Shown in pieces: positions 2,640 to 11,001 of a DNA stretch of 64,000 nucleotides (position 1 is its first letter; every line of letters begins with the position of its first letter). Below the pieces are notes generated by a model. That model saw only the letters and a program-made list of their open reading frames with translations, was not told where the DNA came from and made no database searches. A program made the translations under genes and the position numbers. Origin of the DNA: an uncultured Pirellulaceae bacterium (GTDB lineage Bacteria; Planctomycetota; Planctomycetia; Pirellulales; Pirellulaceae); NCBI GenBank assembly GCA_964589435.1, contig CAZPTT010000009.1:2457-66456 (forward strand). The letters are read 5' to 3'.

Positions 2640-4184
2640 TTACTCGGTCAGAATTGTCGGTAGATTGTTAGCGATTTCTTCGAAAATCGCGACCAAGCCG
2701 TCTCCTTCATCAGCATGGTAGTGCCGGCCATATCCGGTCGCGGCGACATCTTCCATGGCATCTTGATCGGCTCCTGGAGTAAACGTCACGGTGTGAATCG
2801 TCACGTTGTTATCTTCAATGATGTCTTCCGCTGCGTCTTCGGGCTCTTCACCCGCGTTGTTCTCACCATCGGTCAAAACAACAATTGTCTTAGCCGCGAA
2901 CAATCGGGCATCATCGCCACTAATAATTGGGTCAACGCCTTCCAGCATCCCATCACCAATCGCCGTTCCGTCATACGGCTTGATACCGGCAACTTTGTTT
3001 CGAATTAAGTCATAGTCTGACTGGAGCTCGTATTCGAGATAAGTACTGGTGTTAAACGTTACCAAAGATACCAATTCCTCTTGGTCCGTGTTTTCCAGAA
3101 TATCGAGGAACGCATCAACTCCATCCTCAAGTAGATCCCAACGGCTGTGCCGAGCTGCTTGGGAAGTGTTGTATTCCCAGTCATAAGCAAATTCTGCCAT
3201 ATCTTGGGTGAGTTTGTTTGATTCACTAGAGCTAAACGAAGTGCCGAGCGTGTGATCATCGTTGGTCCATTTTTCCAATTGATAAATTACGTTATTGGAA
3301 TACTCTCGGCTGTAAAGGGACTTGGTCGCATCTTGATATTCATCCCAACTGATGAGGCGATCGCTTGACGAACTGCCATCAACATAATATTTGTCCCACC
3401 AATCGAGAAACTCCCAATCTGATTCGGCATCTTCTTCCTTGTGGTATCCACGCCAGTAATACCACCACCCAGATCGTTCCCAGTAGGCATACATCCAGTA
3501 GCCTTCTTCTCCGGATGTCTCATAGGTCGAGTACAAGTCGTAAAGCGTGTCCGTTAGCGCCTCGTCGTCTTCGTAATACAGCATGGATCCTGAGCGATCG
3601 AGAACCAGAGCGATATCACGATCAACTTGAGTCGCAATCGAGCGGCGATTGACCGCGAACTCACCGAAGTTGCCGTAGTTCATTACGTTGAAAACGACTG
3701 GCAACTCGATACGAGTATTGATAGCAATACTTGTCGCACGCTGAACACCGGTATCGACATCGTCTTTGTCGACTCCGGTAAACTCATACATTCCGTAACC
3801 GCCATCGCCGCGTGTTGACAGTCCAAATTGGGCATCGAAATGGTCTTCGTCGTTTTCAGAGGCCGAAATCGAAATCACCTGCCCACCAACAAGATTGGCT
3901 TGAGCGGTTAGTTCGGCCTGTGCGATAGCGGCATCGGTTGTTTGATGGACGCTCATGGCGCGACCACCCGCGTGGGCAGAAGCGTCAGTAGCGACTTTCA
4001 ATTCCGTCGAAACCTTTTGCATGTAAGCCAAGTTAATTGCGAAGCCACAAAAGATCAGCAAAACCGGCAGCATGAAAGCGAACAACGGAGCGACAGCACC
4101 TTTTCGATTCAGCTTGGTCGTCTTCGCACATTTAAGTTTCATCATCATTTCGGATCGTCTTTCATTCAATGTTGGGTCGAACAT
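2640..4184 (-). CDS. TadG-like pilus-associated protein with vWA domain
   Basis: N-terminal RKGAVAPLFAFMLPVLLIFCGFAINLAY (Tad/pseudopilin-like TM), MIDAS DRSGS, GTAIGDG and VVLTDGENN. Confidence 0.85.
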   Translation of the reverse strand: MFDPTLNERRSEMMMKLKCAKTTKLNRKGAVAPLFAFMLPVLLIFCGFAINLAYMQKVSTELKVATDASAHAGGRAMSVHQTTDAAIAQAELTAQANLVGGQVISISASENDEDHFDAQFGLSTRGDGGYGMYEFTGVDKDDVDTGVQRATSIAINTRIELPVVFNVMNYGNFGEFAVNRRSIATQVDRDIALVLDRSGSMLYYEDDEALTDTLYDLYSTYETSGEEGYWMYAYWERSGWWYYWRGYHKEEDAESDWEFLDWWDKYYVDGSSSSDRLISWDEYQDATKSLYSREYSNNVIYQLEKWTNDDHTLGTSFSSSESNKLTQDMAEFAYDWEYNTSQAARHSRWDLLEDGVDAFLDILENTDQEELVSLVTFNTSTYLEYELQSDYDLIRNKVAGIKPYDGTAIGDGMLEGVDPIISGDDARLFAAKTIVVLTDGENNAGEEPEDAAEDIIEDNNVTIHTVTFTPGADQDAMEDVAATGYGRHYHADEGDGLVAIFEEIANNLPTILTE

Positions 4185-4284
4185 TCAATGCCTCCAGTAC
4201 ATGGAAATTTAATTGCTTCGTAGTTGGCCCGTTTCCAGGCCGAAGATCGCTTACGCTATTCATTCGCGTTTTTCAGCTCGTCAC

Positions 4285-4782
4285 CTAATCAATATCGTCC
4301 GCGTCAAAGTACCCGCGGTATCGCTCGGTACGAATGGTCATACTGGCATTGATTTGTGTATCACCAAGCACGCTGGCTGGTATGATGACTGAGTTTTCAT
4401 TCAAGTTGATTGTGATCGCACACCGAATTTGCTCGGTATCAAATGCGATCTCGCCTTCGACTTCGCCTGAGTCGTTGAGTGACCCGTCGAAACCGTTGAT
4501 CGTGATTTCTGCGCCTTGCGTCCCCAATCGTGAAAGAATGGTATTCGCTCGCTCGATGCCATCAGCGATCGTGCCGCCCTCGGTCATGACGAAGCGTGCT
4601 CCCTCGTACGCGGCGTTCTGAGCAAGGTTTCGCATCATGCTCAAGCGAGCAAATTCGGCGCAAACTACAATCACCAACACGAACGCGGGTGCGACCATCG
4701 CAAACTCCAACGCGACCGCACCACGGCGTCGATTTCGCCGAGAACGGGCCTTGTTAGTTGTTTTCTTCGCGAATGGATTCAT
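4285..4782 (-). CDS. tadE: TadE/TadG family pseudopilin
   Basis: RRGAVALEFAMVAP...AAYEGAR signature. Confidence 0.88.
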   Translation of the reverse strand: MNPFAKKTTNKARSRRNRRRGAVALEFAMVAPAFVLVIVVCAEFARLSMMRNLAQNAAYEGARFVMTEGGTIADGIERANTILSRLGTQGAEITINGFDGSLNDSGEVEGEIAFDTEQIRCAITINLNENSVIIPASVLGDTQINASMTIRTERYRGYFDADDID

Positions 4783-4825
4783 CGTTTCTAACTCAAAAAT
4801 CTAAAGGTAATTTTTTTACGGCCTG

Positions 4826-4885
4826 GTTTTCTTCTTCTCACCTGTCTTCTTCCTACCTGTCTTCTTCCTAACTGCCTTCTACTTA
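4826..4885. repeat. Four degenerate 15-bp tandem units starting at the tadE stop codon
   Basis: CCTGTCTTCTTCCTA exact twice (4841-4870), with variants at 4826-4840 and 4871-4885. Confidence 0.8.
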
Positions 4886-5341
4886 GTCGTCGAATTCACG
4901 AACCATTGTCACAGAAGATGTAACATTGCGATTAACCAGGGTGTCGAAAATGTAAAGTGAGTTTCCAGCAGTTGGCGCGGTGATCGTGACAGTAATTGGG
5001 TCGAGTTCGCTTAGCGTGCTGAAGTCCGTAGGGTTAATCACAATTCCCGTTACCGTTCCAGCACTATCGGTTGGTAGTGTCACCAGACGATCAGCCAGCG
5101 CTTCAACCGCTCGGTCGTAAACATCGTCGTAGTCCGCCCGACGACGGACGCCCGCTCTTGCTGCTTCATATGCACAAACCGTCAAAGACTCCGACAAGTA
5201 AATTCCTGCGCAAACTTCGAGCGTTCCCATCATTAAAACAATGACGATTGGGATGCAAAGAGCCGCCTCCACAACTGCCGCACCTTTACGATCGCTTTTT
5301 CGGCGACGGGAGAGGCGTGATTTTGAAACGATTTGATTCAT
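4883..5341 (-). CDS. tadE: TadE family pseudopilin
   Basis: RKGAAVVEAALCIP...AYEAARAG signature. Confidence 0.88.
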   Translation of the reverse strand: MNQIVSKSRLSRRRKSDRKGAAVVEAALCIPIVIVLMMGTLEVCAGIYLSESLTVCAYEAARAGVRRRADYDDVYDRAVEALADRLVTLPTDSAGTVTGIVINPTDFSTLSELDPITVTITAPTAGNSLYIFDTLVNRNVTSSVTMVREFDD

Positions 5342-5653
5342 GGTTGATTACTTGTTAAGAGTCGGTCGAGGCAAAATGCTCACTGGTTGTTATGGAGACT
5401 CAGTTGTTATTGGAAACGTATGTCAACAATCACGAGGCGGCGTGATTTCAATCAAACTTCCCACGTGAATTCTTCCGAGCCTGCTACCCAATTAGTACAT
5501 CCGCGCCAACCGTTATTCGTTTCTCGATACCGTTCAAGCAACCGTAAATTTTGCGGCATTGGACTCACCGTTGCATAACCGGCAAAACAAAGACATTCGG
5601 AATAATCATTTCGCCTTTACTTCCGTTGGAAGGCAAATAGAATTGTGGCTTCG

Positions 5654-5833
5654 TTGGAACGGTGATCGCGTTTGGCACATCTGCTCGTGATTAAAGGGAA
5701 CCCGGTGAAATTCCGAGACGGCCCCGCCGCTGTAACCGGCTGAAAAACGACCACTTTCTTACACCATTGTCGCTCTCGAGCGATGAGAAGGTTGGGGTCG
5801 TTTAGCTGGAAGTCAGAATACCTGCCGATCCAA
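5654..5833 (+). promoter_or_regulatory. Cobalamin (B12) riboswitch
   Basis: Conserved elements in order: AAAGGGAA, CCGGTGAAATTCCG, GGCCCCGCCGCTGTAA, CCATTG...GAGAAGG and the B12 box AAGTCAGAATACCTGCC. P1 closes as TTGGAACGGT/GCCGATCCAA. Confidence 0.92.
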
Positions 5834-5888
5834 TTAACCGAAGTCGTTTTTGCGAGGGACAAAACGGTTTCAGAATCGATCTGTATTT

Positions 5889-6737
5889 ATGTTCACAACA
5901 TACGCGGGTGAGCTGCGCGCTACGCGATGCCATCACCAATGGCCTTCCAGGCAAGCGGCCCCACTGACGCGAGGGTTCACACTGGTTGAATTGCTTGTCG
6001 TTATCGCAATCATCGGAATTCTAATCGGCATGTTATTGCCAGCCGTGCAAATGGTACGAGAGTCCGCACGCCGCACAAGCTGCTTAAACAACCTTCGCCA
6101 AACAAGCATCGGCTTGCAGGCGTATCACGCGGCACTGGAAGAATTCCCAGTTGGCGCGATCGAGTGGCGAAGCGGCGGAGACAAAACGAAGCGTCAGTTG
6201 GCTTGGAGTATCCATTTGCTTCCATTCCTTGAACAGGACAATGTTCATCGACAACTTGATCTCAACACTCCGTTTGACAGTCCAGAGAATGCGCACGGTG
6301 CGGCTCAGATTTTGAGCGTCTTCATTTGCCCAAGTGGAGTACGCGGAGCAACGTTGGTGGACGGTCGTGGGCCATGTGACTATGGCGGAATTTACGGAGA
6401 GCGCATCAACAGTCCCAACAATCCTCCCAAAGGGATCATGATCCATGACATCGCCATTCGCTTGGCCGATGTGACCGACGGAAGCTCCAACACACTGATC
6501 GTCGCCGAGGACTCTGGCTGGGGCGATGGACAGTGGATCAATGGTCGTAATATTTTTGATCAAGCATTTAAAATCAATCAAGCGCCGTCATTTGAAAACG
6601 ACATTCGCAGTGAACACCCCAGCGGTGCCAATGCGACTCGCGCCGACGGCAGCGTGATGTTCATCTCGGAAAACACAGACCTGCAAACACTCGGCGCGAT
6701 CTGCTCCCGTGCCGGCGGAGAAACCGTCAGCTTTTGA
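5889..6737 (+). CDS. DUF1559 family prepilin-type (PulG-like) protein
   Basis: GFTLVELLVVIAIIGILIGMLLPAVQMVRESARR...C.NNLRQ, DGSSNT and the C-terminal H-X9-DG motif (HPSGANATRADG). ATG at 5889 preferred over TTG at 5850. Confidence 0.93.
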   Translation: MFTTYAGELRATRCHHQWPSRQAAPLTRGFTLVELLVVIAIIGILIGMLLPAVQMVRESARRTSCLNNLRQTSIGLQAYHAALEEFPVGAIEWRSGGDKTKRQLAWSIHLLPFLEQDNVHRQLDLNTPFDSPENAHGAAQILSVFICPSGVRGATLVDGRGPCDYGGIYGERINSPNNPPKGIMIHDIAIRLADVTDGSSNTLIVAEDSGWGDGQWINGRNIFDQAFKINQAPSFENDIRSEHPSGANATRADGSVMFISENTDLQTLGAICSRAGGETVSF

Positions 6738-6842
6738 ATGAGCCAACACTTACATCACTCTTGAATATGCCGACGGTTTTCCCTCGGCGCTTCTTACTTT
6801 TTAAGCACCTGCTTTTTGCTTTTTCACCTTGCGGCTAACAAC

Positions 6843-7721
6843 ATGAAACACTCACTAACTTTAAGTTCCCTATTCTTAGCTTCCATTTTCTTGGCGGCCA
6901 CGTCGACAACAGCTCAAACGCTTACCTTCGAAGAACTGCCTGTTCCGGCGACTGGTTTTTTTAACGGAGACGTTAATGGGGCGGCAAACTTGCGACAGAA
7001 CTTTCGCACGATTGGAACCCGAGACAACTTCGGTTCGGAAGAGACTCTTCAACTCTGGGGGCTCGGCGGCGGCGAGTTTTTTAATGGCTACACGGAAGCC
7101 TTCGGGTCTTGGAATGGCTGGAGTTGGTCGAACGTCGAAGATTCGGCGACTGCCGGATTCTTGAATCAGTACGCCTCGTTTCCAGGCGGGGGAAGTGATG
7201 GAGTTGGTGGAACTGACTCCGGTGGTAACTATGCGATTGGGTTTAGCGGCGAAGCGTACTTCAATTTACCTTCACTGACGGAACTAGTCTCGGTTGATCT
7301 CGCGAATTCGACCTACGCCGCACTATCAATGCGCGATGGAGATCAGTTTGCTCGCAAATTCGGTGGAGACAGCGGCGATGAAGAGGACTTTTTCAAGATC
7401 GACATCATTGGCTACAACCAGTTGTTCACCGGATCCGATTTAGCAGGATCCGAAGTAGGCTCGGTCGAGCTATTTCTGGCCGACTATCGTTTCGCGGACA
7501 ACAGCCTTGATTTCATCTCTGATCGCTGGAACAACGTTGATCTTTCTTCGCTGACCGGAGCCCAGTCGATCCGTTTCGCGATCGAGTCATCGGTAGGAGG
7601 GACACCATCCTATGTGGCCATCGACAATCTCAGCCTGACGACCTCGGTTCCAGAACCAGCAAGCGGAGCGTTTTTACTGGGCACGAGCTTGCTGCTGCTT
7701 ACGCAACGTCGTCGCCGCTGA
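6843..7721 (+). CDS. DUF4465 domain protein with signal peptide and PEP-CTERM sorting signal
   Basis: Signal peptide; DUF4465-like motifs WSWSN, NQYAS, NSTYAALSM.DGD.FARKFGG, FLADYR, W..VDLSSL and PSYVAIDNL; C-terminal VPEP + hydrophobic stretch + RRRR. Confidence 0.85.
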   Translation: MKHSLTLSSLFLASIFLAATSTTAQTLTFEELPVPATGFFNGDVNGAANLRQNFRTIGTRDNFGSEETLQLWGLGGGEFFNGYTEAFGSWNGWSWSNVEDSATAGFLNQYASFPGGGSDGVGGTDSGGNYAIGFSGEAYFNLPSLTELVSVDLANSTYAALSMRDGDQFARKFGGDSGDEEDFFKIDIIGYNQLFTGSDLAGSEVGSVELFLADYRFADNSLDFISDRWNNVDLSSLTGAQSIRFAIESSVGGTPSYVAIDNLSLTTSVPEPASGAFLLGTSLLLLTQRRRR

Positions 7722-7767
7722 ATAAGCTTGACAGCTTGCTGGCGGATCTGAAAAACCGTCTTTTCAC

Positions 7768-7800
7768 GGGCACTCAAACTCGATTTGAGTGCCCACTTTT
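7768..7800 (+). terminator. Intrinsic terminator candidate closing the B12 operon
   Basis: Perfect 11-bp inverted repeat GGGCACTCAAA-ctcga-TTTGAGTGCCC followed by ACTTTT. Confidence 0.65.
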
Positions 7801-7941
7801 CACGCTTCTTTCCTCTCATAGCAAGGAAACTGAAAAGTCTGCTTCTGTCGTAGCAGGACGGCACGACCCGCGCATAGCGCGTAGCAAGAAAATTGACCAG
7901 CGGTTTACGAAGGGTTAGGATCGTTCACGAAGTAGTGAAAT

Positions 7942-10476
7942 TTGAATTCTCATCTGAACACCCAAGACCTTGGCGAGGTAGCGATGCTGAATCTTAGACT
8001 CTCAATCCCAATTCCGTCGCAGCAAAACTCTGCCAAACTTTGGCTGAAACTTGCGATTACTATCGGCTTGACATTTTCACTCAGCGGCATCTCGTTGAGC
8101 CAAGAAACATCAAGCAAGGAAGGCGCGGCTGCCGCAGGAGAAGTTGACGAAGAGTTTCCGGACGCACCATCGGTTCAACTGACCGTCCTGGAATCCAACG
8201 GCAAACCGATCCCGCACGCTGACGTTTCTGTCAGTTGCTGGTTCCAAGATCAACAATACCGGTCAAAGTATCCCCGCGATCAGAAAGCAGACGAAAATGG
8301 CATCGTCACGATAAAGCTTCTTCCAACATTGGAACGAATACGATTTTGGGTTTCTGCTGAGGATCATGTGACTCTATTCTCTGGCTTCGAACCAGGAATG
8401 CTTGCCAATCTCCCGAGTGAAATTACGTTTCGCTTGCAGCGATCTGAATCGATCGGTGGAAAAGTCCTCGACTCCGACGGTAAACCGGTCGCCGGAGCCG
8501 CCATTGAGATCATGAGAAATGGCGGGGGGAGTAAACTCGACACCAATGACTTCTCACAATTGAATACATGGATTGCATTAGATGACGATCCGATACGAAC
8601 CGACGAAGATGGTGAGTGGATGATCGATCAGCGGATTCCAACTGGTGACGATCTTGATCTGAGCTTCATTGTCAAACATCCGGATTTGCTTGGTGATTCA
8701 CGCTGGACATCGATGAGCAAGAAACGGGTCACGCTGAAGCAATTAAAGGAGCGATCGGCGACCTTCACAATGACAAAAGGAGCCAGGCTGAAAGGGACTG
8801 TGGTCGATGATGCTGGTAAACCCATTGAGAATGCGTTGGTCATTTGGGGGGATCGACCGTACTGGGAAAAAGGAAGCCAAGAGATAAAAACAAACTCGGA
8901 CGGTGAATTTCATATCCCAGCGCAGAGCAAATCGAAACCGCTGAACGTGACCGTCGTCGCTCAAGGCTGGATGCCTCAATTGAGAAAGTTCAACCTTGCC
9001 AAGGAAGGGCTCGAGGCGAATTTTTCGATGGCCAAGGGTAAGAAGTTACATTTGAAGTTCGTCGACGCCAACGGAGATCCGGTACCCAAGGTTCGCGTTG
9101 GACTCAAAAAATGGCGGGGCATCGAATCACTCTACAACATCCAGCATCCCAATGTTGTCGATTCCAAAATCCCCACCGTCTCAGACGAAAATGGTGAGTA
9201 CATCTGGGACTGGGCGCCCGATGACGAGGTCACTTATCAAACCGGCAACCGTGAATTTGCTCGGTTCACGGAACGCAAGTTGATCGCCGACGGGACGATC
9301 CAAACGATCGAACTAAAACAAAAATTCTCCCTCGCCGGAACCGTTGTCAATGCAGTGACCAATGAGCCAGTCGACCAGTTTACGATTACGCCGGTAACTT
9401 GTTATCCCGGCGGGCGGGGGATTGCTCAGTCCAACAGCAGCCAGCAGTTTGCGTCCTCCAATTTCACAATGAACGTTGATTCGTTTGGCCATCACGATGG
9501 TAACATCAAGTTCGAAATCGAGTCGCTTGGATTTCGCGTCAAAGTAACCGAAGAGTTTACGAAAGAGGCTAAACCATTTGAGGGCGTGATTGCGATGGAA
9601 CCTGTTCCGTCTCCGACTGGACGAGCCGTCGATACAGCTGGAAACCCTGTCTCGGGCGCTTCAATTTTTGTCTGCACCAAAGACAACGGCGCAATGATCA
9701 ACGGTATCGATGAGTATTTCCAATCGAGCGAGCGAATGTATAAAGCGGGCGAAGATGGAAAATTCCAGTATGCCGCCCAGAATTCGCGAGTTGCCATCAC
9801 CATCGCTTCGCCCGACGGCTATGCAGAGAAATATCTTGAAAGTGACGAGCATCCCGGCGACGTTGTTCTCAAACCCTGGGCGCGAATCGAAGGTCAGTTG
9901 GTTCAAGCCGGCAACCCGGTTCCTGGTGCAACAGTGATGGTCAATCCGATCCGAACATTGGGAAATGAAAACCCTCATGTTCAGGATATTTTTTATACTG
10001 AAACCGACAACGAAGGTCGGTTCGTTTTCGAAAGAGTTCCGCCCATTCCTTGTTCGATCCGTAGTCGACTTTCGCCATGGGAAGACGCTCCCATCACGTC
10101 CAACCGCTCAGTTGCAATCCGACTAGAACCCGGCAAGACTCACCAAATAAGCCTTGGCGGCGAAGGTTTACAAATCGTGGGCAACGTGAAACTCAATGGA
10201 GAATCTACTGATCACATCGAGTTCCGGTACGGTCTCAACACGCTACTCAAAGTCGGCAGCAAGATTGAACTGGAAAAGCACCTCGTCAATCCCGGCCAGT
10301 TTTCTGTTGGCCAGGAGAAAGACGAAATGATGCGGCTCACCGATGGCAGTGGCTCAACAGCCGGCTACGAAACTCACTTTGTCAAAATCAATCCTGACGG
10401 GTCTTTTCTGATCAATGGAGTTGCTCCAGGAGACTATCGTTTTTTACTTCGGGTGTACGAACCGCCCTCTGGCTGA
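7942..10476 (+). CDS. Large exported protein with carboxypeptidase-regulatory-like beta-sandwich repeats (5' part of an in-frame fusion with the TlpA domain)
   Basis: Signal/TM segment and repeated G.V.D..GKP..GA.V...TD.DG.F motifs. Start codon uncertain (7942-7984). Confidence 0.8.
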   Translation: MNSHLNTQDLGEVAMLNLRLSIPIPSQQNSAKLWLKLAITIGLTFSLSGISLSQETSSKEGAAAAGEVDEEFPDAPSVQLTVLESNGKPIPHADVSVSCWFQDQQYRSKYPRDQKADENGIVTIKLLPTLERIRFWVSAEDHVTLFSGFEPGMLANLPSEITFRLQRSESIGGKVLDSDGKPVAGAAIEIMRNGGGSKLDTNDFSQLNTWIALDDDPIRTDEDGEWMIDQRIPTGDDLDLSFIVKHPDLLGDSRWTSMSKKRVTLKQLKERSATFTMTKGARLKGTVVDDAGKPIENALVIWGDRPYWEKGSQEIKTNSDGEFHIPAQSKSKPLNVTVVAQGWMPQLRKFNLAKEGLEANFSMAKGKKLHLKFVDANGDPVPKVRVGLKKWRGIESLYNIQHPNVVDSKIPTVSDENGEYIWDWAPDDEVTYQTGNREFARFTERKLIADGTIQTIELKQKFSLAGTVVNAVTNEPVDQFTITPVTCYPGGRGIAQSNSSQQFASSNFTMNVDSFGHHDGNIKFEIESLGFRVKVTEEFTKEAKPFEGVIAMEPVPSPTGRAVDTAGNPVSGASIFVCTKDNGAMINGIDEYFQSSERMYKAGEDGKFQYAAQNSRVAITIASPDGYAEKYLESDEHPGDVVLKPWARIEGQLVQAGNPVPGATVMVNPIRTLGNENPHVQDIFYTETDNEGRFVFERVPPIPCSIRSRLSPWEDAPITSNRSVAIRLEPGKTHQISLGGEGLQIVGNVKLNGESTDHIEFRYGLNTLLKVGSKIELEKHLVNPGQFSVGQEKDEMMRLTDGSGSTAGYETHFVKINPDGSFLINGVAPGDYRFLLRVYEPPSG

Positions 10477-11001
10477 CTGATTGACCCAATTGGCAGTAAG
10501 TTTATTGCCTTCACAACGAGTGACTTCAACGTTATCGACAATCAGATTGACATGGGCACGATTACCATCGACCTCGCGCCGTTGCCGAAGCCCGGCCAGC
10601 CATTGCCTAATTTCCGATACGCCGATCCTGCCGGCCAAATGAAACAGTCGTCGGATTTGCAAGGCGAAGTCGTCCTCATCGATTTCTGGGCGACTTGGTG
10701 CAAGCCTTGTGTCGCATTGCTTCCCGAAATAGAAGAAATTCATGACTTGCTCGATGACAAAGATGGCTTTCGATTGTTGGGCTTGAACCTAGATTCGGAT
10801 GTTGAAGCTGCGAAGTCATTCTTGGCGGAACGAGACTTGCCGTGGGAACAAGGCTTCCTCGGCACAAAAAAGGACGCGCTAAAATCTCTTGGAATTAGCT
10901 CAGTCCCTCATTATTGCTTGGTTGATGCCGACGGAACGATTTTGGAATGGGGCAGTAACTTCGAAAATATAAAGGCCCGTTTGAAAACCCTGCTCAAATA
11001 G
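10477..11001 (+). CDS. TlpA/ResA-like thioredoxin domain, in frame with the upstream ORF across one TGA
   Basis: VLIDFWATWCKPC and ISSVPHYCLVDADG. The frame is open from 10477; the track calls 10552..11001. Confidence 0.8.
   Translation: MIDPIGSKFIAFTTSDFNVIDNQIDMGTITIDLAPLPKPGQPLPNFRYADPAGQMKQSSDLQGEVVLIDFWATWCKPCVALLPEIEEIHDLLDDKDGFRLLGLNLDSDVEAAKSFLAERDLPWEQGFLGTKKDALKSLGISSVPHYCLVDADGTILEWGSNFENIKARLKTLLK
10492..10509 (+). other. Putative bacterial SECIS-like hairpin
   Basis: GGCAGTA-agtt-TATTGCC, a 7-bp stem with one G-U pair. The loop begins 22 nt after the in-frame TGA and has G at loop position 2. Confidence 0.3.

Follow-up and report, generated by a model that had tools for sequence, protein, structure and literature searches.

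A DUF4465 protein with a PEP-CTERM tail, a probable surface-displayed cobalamin binder, in a riboswitch-led operon of a Pirellulaceae bacterium

The DUF4465 gene described here (gene 2) lies in a 64,000-nucleotide stretch of DNA from an uncultured Pirellulaceae bacterium; the whole stretch that was analysed is referred to below as the window. We propose that its product is a riboswitch-controlled, exosortase-sorted and surface-displayed binder of vitamin B12, and we hold the binder part of this proposal to be highly probable. The gene shares an operon with a DUF1559 prepilin-type gene (gene 1). Since binding of B12 by DUF4465 proteins across phyla is already published, a planctomycete protein and other bacteria of the PVC superphylum included, this core claim is less novel than it might appear, and the binder domain can no longer count as new. 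We found no paper that describes PEP-CTERM or T9SS anchoring of the DUF4465 family in the literature searched, nor one that describes a dedicated DUF1559 partner at the operon place held in Burkholderiales by a TonB-dependent receptor, or an apparent auxotroph whose only B12-regulated unit is a DUF1559-DUF4465 pair.

Vitamin B12, a 1.3 kDa cofactor, is traded and limiting in marine and soil communities, and what is known of its capture by bacteria with an outer membrane rests almost entirely on the TonB-dependent receptor BtuB. The newly defined BtuJ/DUF4465 binder family is widely deployed with a PEP-CTERM/exosortase anchor, and its planctomycete members occur in genomes without detectable BtuB or BtuF, beside a pilin-like protein in the receptor's operon place. 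The two genes offer a handle on B12 acquisition by a B12-auxotrophic planctomycete, on roles of exosortase cargo beyond EPS biology, and on the purpose of the enigmatic DUF1559 family in one of its clades at least. Cultivable planctomycetes that carry the module include Pirellulaceae bacterium SH467, Roseiconus nitratireducens, Tautonia sp., Zavarzinella formosa and Paludisphaera soli.

The riboswitch and the two-gene operon

The features of the operon are collected in Table 1. The covariance model of the cobalamin riboswitch scored 92.8 bits (gathering cut-off 31.5) over model positions 1-189 of 189, and RF00174 has no further match in the draft genome of 6.47 Mb. The riboswitch context to which the sequence-only reading had appealed is thus real, with the aptamer upstream of the DUF4465 gene on the same strand. 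Next in order are the DUF1559 gene, whose start is uncertain (the open reading frame opens with TTG at 5850 and its first ATG is at 5889), a 105-nt spacer and the DUF4465 gene, which runs from an ATG at 6843 to a TGA at 7719-7721; an alternative in-frame TTG at 6816 would add nine amino acids to its product.

Table 1. Features of the riboswitch-led operon in the window
Feature	Position	Strand	Basis
Cobalamin riboswitch aptamer (RF00174), operon leader	5643..5843	+	covariance model; B12 box present
Gene 1, DUF1559 (PF07596) with prepilin-type N-terminal methylation motif RG/FTLVELLVVIAIIGIL	5889..6737	+	profiles
Gene 2, DUF4465/BtuJ-type with PEP-CTERM tail, 292 aa	6843..7721	+	PF14717; PDB sequence and fold matches
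Predicted Sec-type signal peptide MKHSLTLSSLFLASIFLAATSTTAQ	6843..6917	+	read from sequence; layout common to homologues
Augmented beta-jellyroll, predicted B12-binding domain	6906..7646	+	PF14717; AF2 model; Foldseek
Pfam core (PF14717) of the jellyroll	7098-7631	+	
PEP-CTERM sorting signal: VPEP, hydrophobic helix, RRRR at the C-terminal end	7647..7718	+	profiles; homologues
11-bp GC-rich hairpin followed by U-rich ACUUUUCAC, probable intrinsic terminator	7768..7794	+	folding

The region 7722-7815 folds with -28.7 kcal/mol (z = -3.7), a value equalled by none of 200 shuffled sequences; the hairpin within it was seen by folding instead of by a consensus terminator scan, which made no call there. 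A promoter-like site is present between the DUF4465 gene and the next gene (at 7942), and the gene downstream of DUF4465 is a different one in seven of eight related loci. Because of the hairpin, the promoter-like site and the variable downstream gene, we conclude that the riboswitch unit is a two-gene operon, DUF1559 followed by DUF4465, which ends at the hairpin. The 844-aa CarboxypepD_reg gene at 7942 was considered as a further member and rejected on these same grounds.

Downstream of the aptamer, no clear terminator or RBS-sequestering helix was recognised as an expression platform, and the fold of 5815-5905 has a z of -0.02 relative to shuffled sequences. The riboswitch would permit expression when B12 is low and repress it under cobalamin, so that the DUF4465 protein would be made when B12 is short.

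The association of riboswitch and DUF4465 is conserved. RF00174 was found upstream and on the same strand in all eight loci fetched via homologous proteins. A separate set, the loci of 80 named genomes obtained by a search with the family alignment, has a cobalamin riboswitch in at least 70 cases, 60 of them found by nhmmer, a sequence HMM that undercounted riboswitches, and ten more by Rfam; in six of the ten negative loci the upstream sequence is shorter than 1 kb. The two sets together give at least 78 riboswitch-positive loci out of 88.

Two neighbouring gene groups in the window may be mentioned. The region 7942-11001 comprises a large exported open reading frame with CarboxypepD_reg repeats, ending at 10476, and then a TlpA/ResA-like thioredoxin open reading frame at 10552-11001; the two are called as separate genes in a close relative (locus L005). 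Upstream of the riboswitch operon and divergent from it, on the minus strand at 2640-5341, there are Tad-pilus-type genes, one for a VWA/Tad protein and two TadE-like, an arrangement that is also found in L005.

The DUF4465 domain and its predicted ligand

The motifs by which the sequence-only reading had assigned the product to DUF4465 (NSTYAALSMRDGDQFARKFGG, FLADYR, VDLSSL and YVAIDN) are all present in the translation. A HMMER comparison with PF14717 (DUF4465) returned a match over profile positions 2-176 of 176 with an E-value of 1.4e-36 and 126.9 bits against a gathering cut-off of 25 bits, which, as a sequence match, is well outside chance. The genome has a single DUF4465 copy. A search of PDB sequences retrieved 9HMU as the best match (E 1.7e-23), followed by 4JQR, 9QPM and 9FCT, the last two being BtuJ1 structures; identity to 9HMU, the nearest B12-bound structure, is only ca. 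30%.

An AlphaFold (AF2) model computed from an alignment of 32 homologues reached a pLDDT of 90.2 and a pTM of 0.84. When this model was compared with the PDB by Foldseek, 9HMU was matched with an E-value of 1.5e-18 and a TM-score of 0.84, BtuJ1 with a TM-score of 0.77 and BtuJ2 with 0.58, and all matches at E<1e-3 were to B12-bound DUF4465 structures. As modelled, gene 2 has the augmented beta-jellyroll fold common to the B12-bound structures. The kinship with cobalamin complexes that had been suggested from the letters alone is thereby borne out, the best solved relatives by sequence as well as by fold being 9HMU, 9FCT/9QPM and 9I2L.

Mapping by alignment places the predicted B12-contact tyrosines of gene 2 at Tyr158 in the DE helix (NSTY) and Tyr257 in the HI loop (GTPSY). 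Each is kept in at least 90% of the 32 homologues, and P255 is invariant. In the DUF4465 family at large the HI loop (GTPAYF/NTPAY) is conserved, with its tyrosine kept in 97% of homologues, and the DE-helix tyrosine is likewise conserved (PMC13398666). Clarke et al. (FEBS Open Bio 2026, PMC13398666) demonstrated in vitro binding of B12 by eight divergent DUF4465 proteins, one of which comes from Mucisphaera calidilacus, a planctomycete, and two of which are verrucomicrobial. BtuJ1 of Bacteroides thetaiotaomicron, a surface lipoprotein, has low nanomolar affinity for B12 and cobinamide and hands B12 to BtuH2 and BtuG2; its surface location is backed by proteinase-K evidence, and a role as an extracellular reservoir has been proposed (bioRxiv 10.1101/2025.07.01.662609). 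The cobalamin binding of DUF4465/BtuJ proteins, to which the earlier reading had pointed, is confirmed by both of these sources. Since family, fold and motif agree, we strongly infer that the gene 2 product binds cobalamin as well.

The closest solved relative, D5EK51 of Coraliomargarita akajimensis (the protein of 9HMU), resembles gene 2 in its augmented jellyroll, in its DE-helix and HI-loop tyrosines, in its N-terminal signal peptide and in belonging to the PVC superphylum; the protein was compared as the crystallised construct. BtuJ1 (BT1491; 9FCT/9QPM) and BtuJ2 (BT1957; 9I2L) are nanomolar accessory surface binders that have the same fold and are encoded in riboswitch-controlled loci, but they are only ca. 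20% identical to gene 2 and carry an N-terminal lipid together with a Bacteroides export signal. They also work with BtuB-BtuG TonB-dependent complexes and BtuCDF, whereas no BtuB-type or BtuF-type protein was detected in the source genome.

The PEP-CTERM tail and its counterparts in other lineages

In the AF2 model the N-terminus, which includes the predicted signal peptide, is a helix of low pLDDT (residues 3-16), and the first strand begins at residue 22. There is no cysteine among the 292 amino acids of the protein, which therefore has no lipobox and is not a lipoprotein. The last 24 residues, VPEPASGAFLLGTSLLLLTQRRRR, are modelled as a helix at 274-291. Model positions 1-24 of two library profiles align with this tail at the very end of the protein, PF07589 with 20.1 bits (curated cut-off 20.7) and TIGR02595 with 14.9 bits (curated cut-off 16). 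In the comparison with TIGR02595 that the sequence-only reading had proposed, the tail aligns end to end and its score is marginally below the cut-off. An HMM trained on the genome's 39 other PEP-CTERM tails, with this one held out, gave the gene 2 tail 26.5 bits, which is inside the training range and exceeds the score of every non-PEP tail among 24,800 open reading frames.

Two exosortase-family genes were found in the genome, one of them XrtU (NF033780, 149.6 bits), and PEP-CTERM-type tails occur on ca. 39 other open reading frames. Because of the exosortases, the similar tails and the held-out score, we accept the end of gene 2, from its sequence, as a PEP-CTERM signal with library scores slightly below threshold; the idea that a VPEP-TM-RRRR tail takes the place of a lipid anchor stands. 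Among the best 120 database homologues, ca. 110 have a PEP-CTERM tail, and P-E-P is invariant across the 32 aligned homologues. The protein resembles cargo of XrtA-type sorting, such as the floc protein PepA, in having VPEP, a hydrophobic helix, an arginine cluster and a signal peptide. It differs in that the passenger is a predicted vitamin binder under a riboswitch and not an EPS-associated protein. We know of no experiment that has established where exosortase substrates end up in Planctomycetota.

As far as the searched literature was accessible to us, it contained no papers that tie PEP-CTERM or exosortases to DUF4465, cobalamin or B12 riboswitches. The DUF4465 proteins of the binding study, among them 'Pan' of M. 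calidilacus, are called lipoproteins or periplasmic-signal proteins there, with no mention of PEP-CTERM, exosortase or DUF1559 (PMC13398666).

Counted over the 80 named loci, the PEP-CTERM tail is present in 37 of 50 from Planctomycetota (most of the others encode giant or truncated proteins), 9 of 10 from Verrucomicrobiota, 7 of 8 from Burkholderiales, 4 of 5 from Myxococcota/Deltaproteobacteria, one of two from Cyanobacteria and the single one from Armatimonadota. It follows from these sequences that the PEP-CTERM anchor is the rule within gene 2's DUF4465 clade. Three Bacteroidota members (L067, L077 and L078, from Cytophagales/Bacteroidales MAGs) carry a T9SS Por_Secre_tail CTD (PF18962) instead, above threshold in two of the three; they have neither a lipobox nor a PEP-CTERM tail, and their DUF4465 genes adjoin TonB-dependent receptor genes. 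In gut Bacteroides, BtuJ1 is anchored through a lipobox and carries a signal for export to the surface (bioRxiv 10.1101/2025.07.01.662609). Since three surface-display devices occur on one binding domain, we argue that this domain works outside the cell; the swap of anchors between lineages, as seen in the sequences, points to selection for surface display. At two loci (L048 and L060) the tails are variant, SVPVPAAVWLLGSG...RRR and SVPAPAAG...RRRRR, and look like those of other exosortase classes (VPLPA-like).

DUF4465 was found in three of 201 evenly sampled planctomycete genomes. It is therefore an optional module and not a general planctomycete solution.

The DUF1559 partner, the need for B12 and possible routes of uptake

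Gene 1 matches PF07596 with an E-value of 4.2e-45, PF07963 with 7e-07 and TIGR02532 with 28.7 bits. Its genome has ca. 39 DUF1559 loci. The riboswitch-linked DUF1559 orthologues of seven genomes form one clade (support 98/99), separate from 17 same-genome paralogues, the best of which is 36% identical to the operon copy. The AF2 model of the protein (pLDDT 79.8) has a 52-residue pilin helix and a head domain. Foldseek retrieved nothing better than E 2.7 for the head in the PDB, and searching PDB sequences with a profile gave matches to the N-terminal pilin helix only. No literature linking DUF1559 with cobalamin was found.

DUF1559 adjoins DUF4465 in at least 27 of the 50 Planctomycetota loci, with differing flanks, and a TonB-dependent receptor gene in none of the 50. 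The eight Burkholderiales loci show the reverse, with a receptor in all and DUF1559 in none. More distant prepilin-type genes are located downstream of DUF4465 in further loci from PVC bacteria and Armatimonadota. Counterparts of the operon outside Planctomycetota are those of Burkholderiales, Myxococcota and Verrucomicrobia (for example L011, L035 and L072), which consist of a riboswitch, a gene for an unannotated PEP-CTERM protein ('family X'), a DUF4465-PEP-CTERM gene and a TonB-dependent receptor gene. They share with gene 2 the DUF4465 clade (36-45% identity), the PEP-CTERM tail and the riboswitch control, but the source genome has the DUF1559 prepilin-type gene instead; a receptor was not found in it and family X is absent. 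A further riboswitch-linked DUF1559 gene was noticed in Maioricimonas sp. JC845 (L096), where the second cobalamin riboswitch of the genome (114.9 bits) directly precedes another prepilin-type DUF1559 gene; there is no DUF4465 nearby, and a small putative lipoprotein gene comes after DUF1559.

The source genome (6.47 Mb in 297 contigs) encodes a complete MetH. MetE, CbiC and CobS were not detected in it, and neither were a BtuF-type (Peripla_BP_2) homologue or a TonB-dependent receptor, the latter having been searched for with PF00593 and, by tblastn, with a Burkholderiales BtuB-like receptor; since the draft is 92% complete, these absences are not proof. Nine of ten other planctomycete genomes with the DUF4465 module likewise have no TonB-dependent receptor, as compared with 7 to 48 receptors in three non-planctomycete control genomes. 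The exception is a Mariniblastus sp. MAG (G209, the genome of L017), in which a single 777-aa open reading frame matches a receptor barrel (C103:28108-29361, E 6.7e-32); it may be genuine or may stem from contamination during binning. The DUF4465 locus has the sole cobalamin riboswitch of the genome in six of these ten planctomycetes. Judged by its gene content, the source organism is B12-dependent and apparently an obligate auxotroph without recognisable Btu import genes.

We picture the workings of the module as follows. After export by Sec, the C-terminal PEP-CTERM signal of the DUF4465 protein would be recognised by an exosortase, either XrtU or the second one, and the protein would be displayed on the exterior of the envelope without an N-terminal lipid. 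Scarce cobalamin would be captured in the loop pocket that holds the DE-helix and HI-loop tyrosines. The co-transcribed, dedicated DUF1559 prepilin-type protein would be the likely partner that passes B12 inward. A bolder version for Planctomycetota without detectable TonB-dependent receptors, which we put forward tentatively and regard as rather unlikely, has the exosortase-displayed DUF4465 protein loading a DUF1559 pseudopilus, akin to type II secretion systems or type IV pili, that would carry B12 across outer membrane and periplasm independently of TonB. If true, it would assign a first function to the very large DUF1559 family and add a new class of vitamin transport.

PEP-CTERM proteins begin as single-pass proteins of the cytoplasmic membrane, and in the models each operon product has one membrane helix. 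Together with the failure to find a Peripla_BP_2/BtuF homologue in the genome, this would also suit a periplasmic, membrane-tethered B12 binder that is retained by its C-terminal helix at the periplasmic side of the cytoplasmic membrane, substitutes for BtuF and, beside a membrane-anchored DUF1559 protein, feeds an inner-membrane transporter, B12 having crossed the outer membrane by another route. We consider such an arrangement improbable, since elsewhere the same domain bears a T9SS CTD or a Bacteroides surface-lipoprotein export signal, the latter with the proteinase-K evidence for BtuJ1, and since in Burkholderiales the DUF4465 gene stands directly upstream of the TonB-dependent receptor gene, which is the place of an extracellular accessory binder. 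The exosortases and the ca. 39 similar tails of the genome also speak for sorting to the surface.

Very improbable, in our estimate, is that a corrinoid is bound at the surface with no uptake to follow, the protein serving as an extracellular store or in competitive sequestering, or binding some other corrinoid or tetrapyrrole, and the adjacent DUF1559 gene having no part in B12 handling. The dedicated orthologous clade of the DUF1559 partner and the recurrence of the adjacency amid differing flanks argue against this, as does the fact that the organism needs imported B12 and has the operon as its sole B12-regulated unit. Its appeal comes from the reservoir role proposed for BtuJ1 (bioRxiv 10.1101/2025.07.01.662609), from the rarity of DUF4465 among the sampled genomes, which makes it dispensable for most planctomycetes, and from the number of DUF1559 loci in the genome, given which the adjacency could be incidental; a reservoir would in any case still count as acquisition. 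The surface-displayed binder with a likely DUF1559 partner remains our preferred reading.

Family X, mentioned above, is a domain of ca. 240 aa that usually has a PEP-CTERM tail of its own (L011:5141-5944, L012:5052-5897 and 43 other loci). It was found in 45 of the 88 DUF4465 loci, in six phyla, where it either follows DUF4465 or separates it from the riboswitch. Identity between the copies of Burkholderiales and Tepidisphaeraceae is 46%, and searches of Pfam and of PDB sequences gave no match. The possibility that it is a divergent DUF4465 was rejected, as the profile comparison aligns the PEP-CTERM tail alone. Giant open reading frames that combine DUF4465 and family X domains, ca. 2000 aa long where complete, are present in Pirellulaceae, Rubripirellula and Zavarzinella (L037, L039, L053, L061, L075 and L090); that of L053 stops at 1810 aa, where its locus ends. 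All six follow a riboswitch, and DUF1559 was scored as adjacent in L039, L053, L075 and L090.
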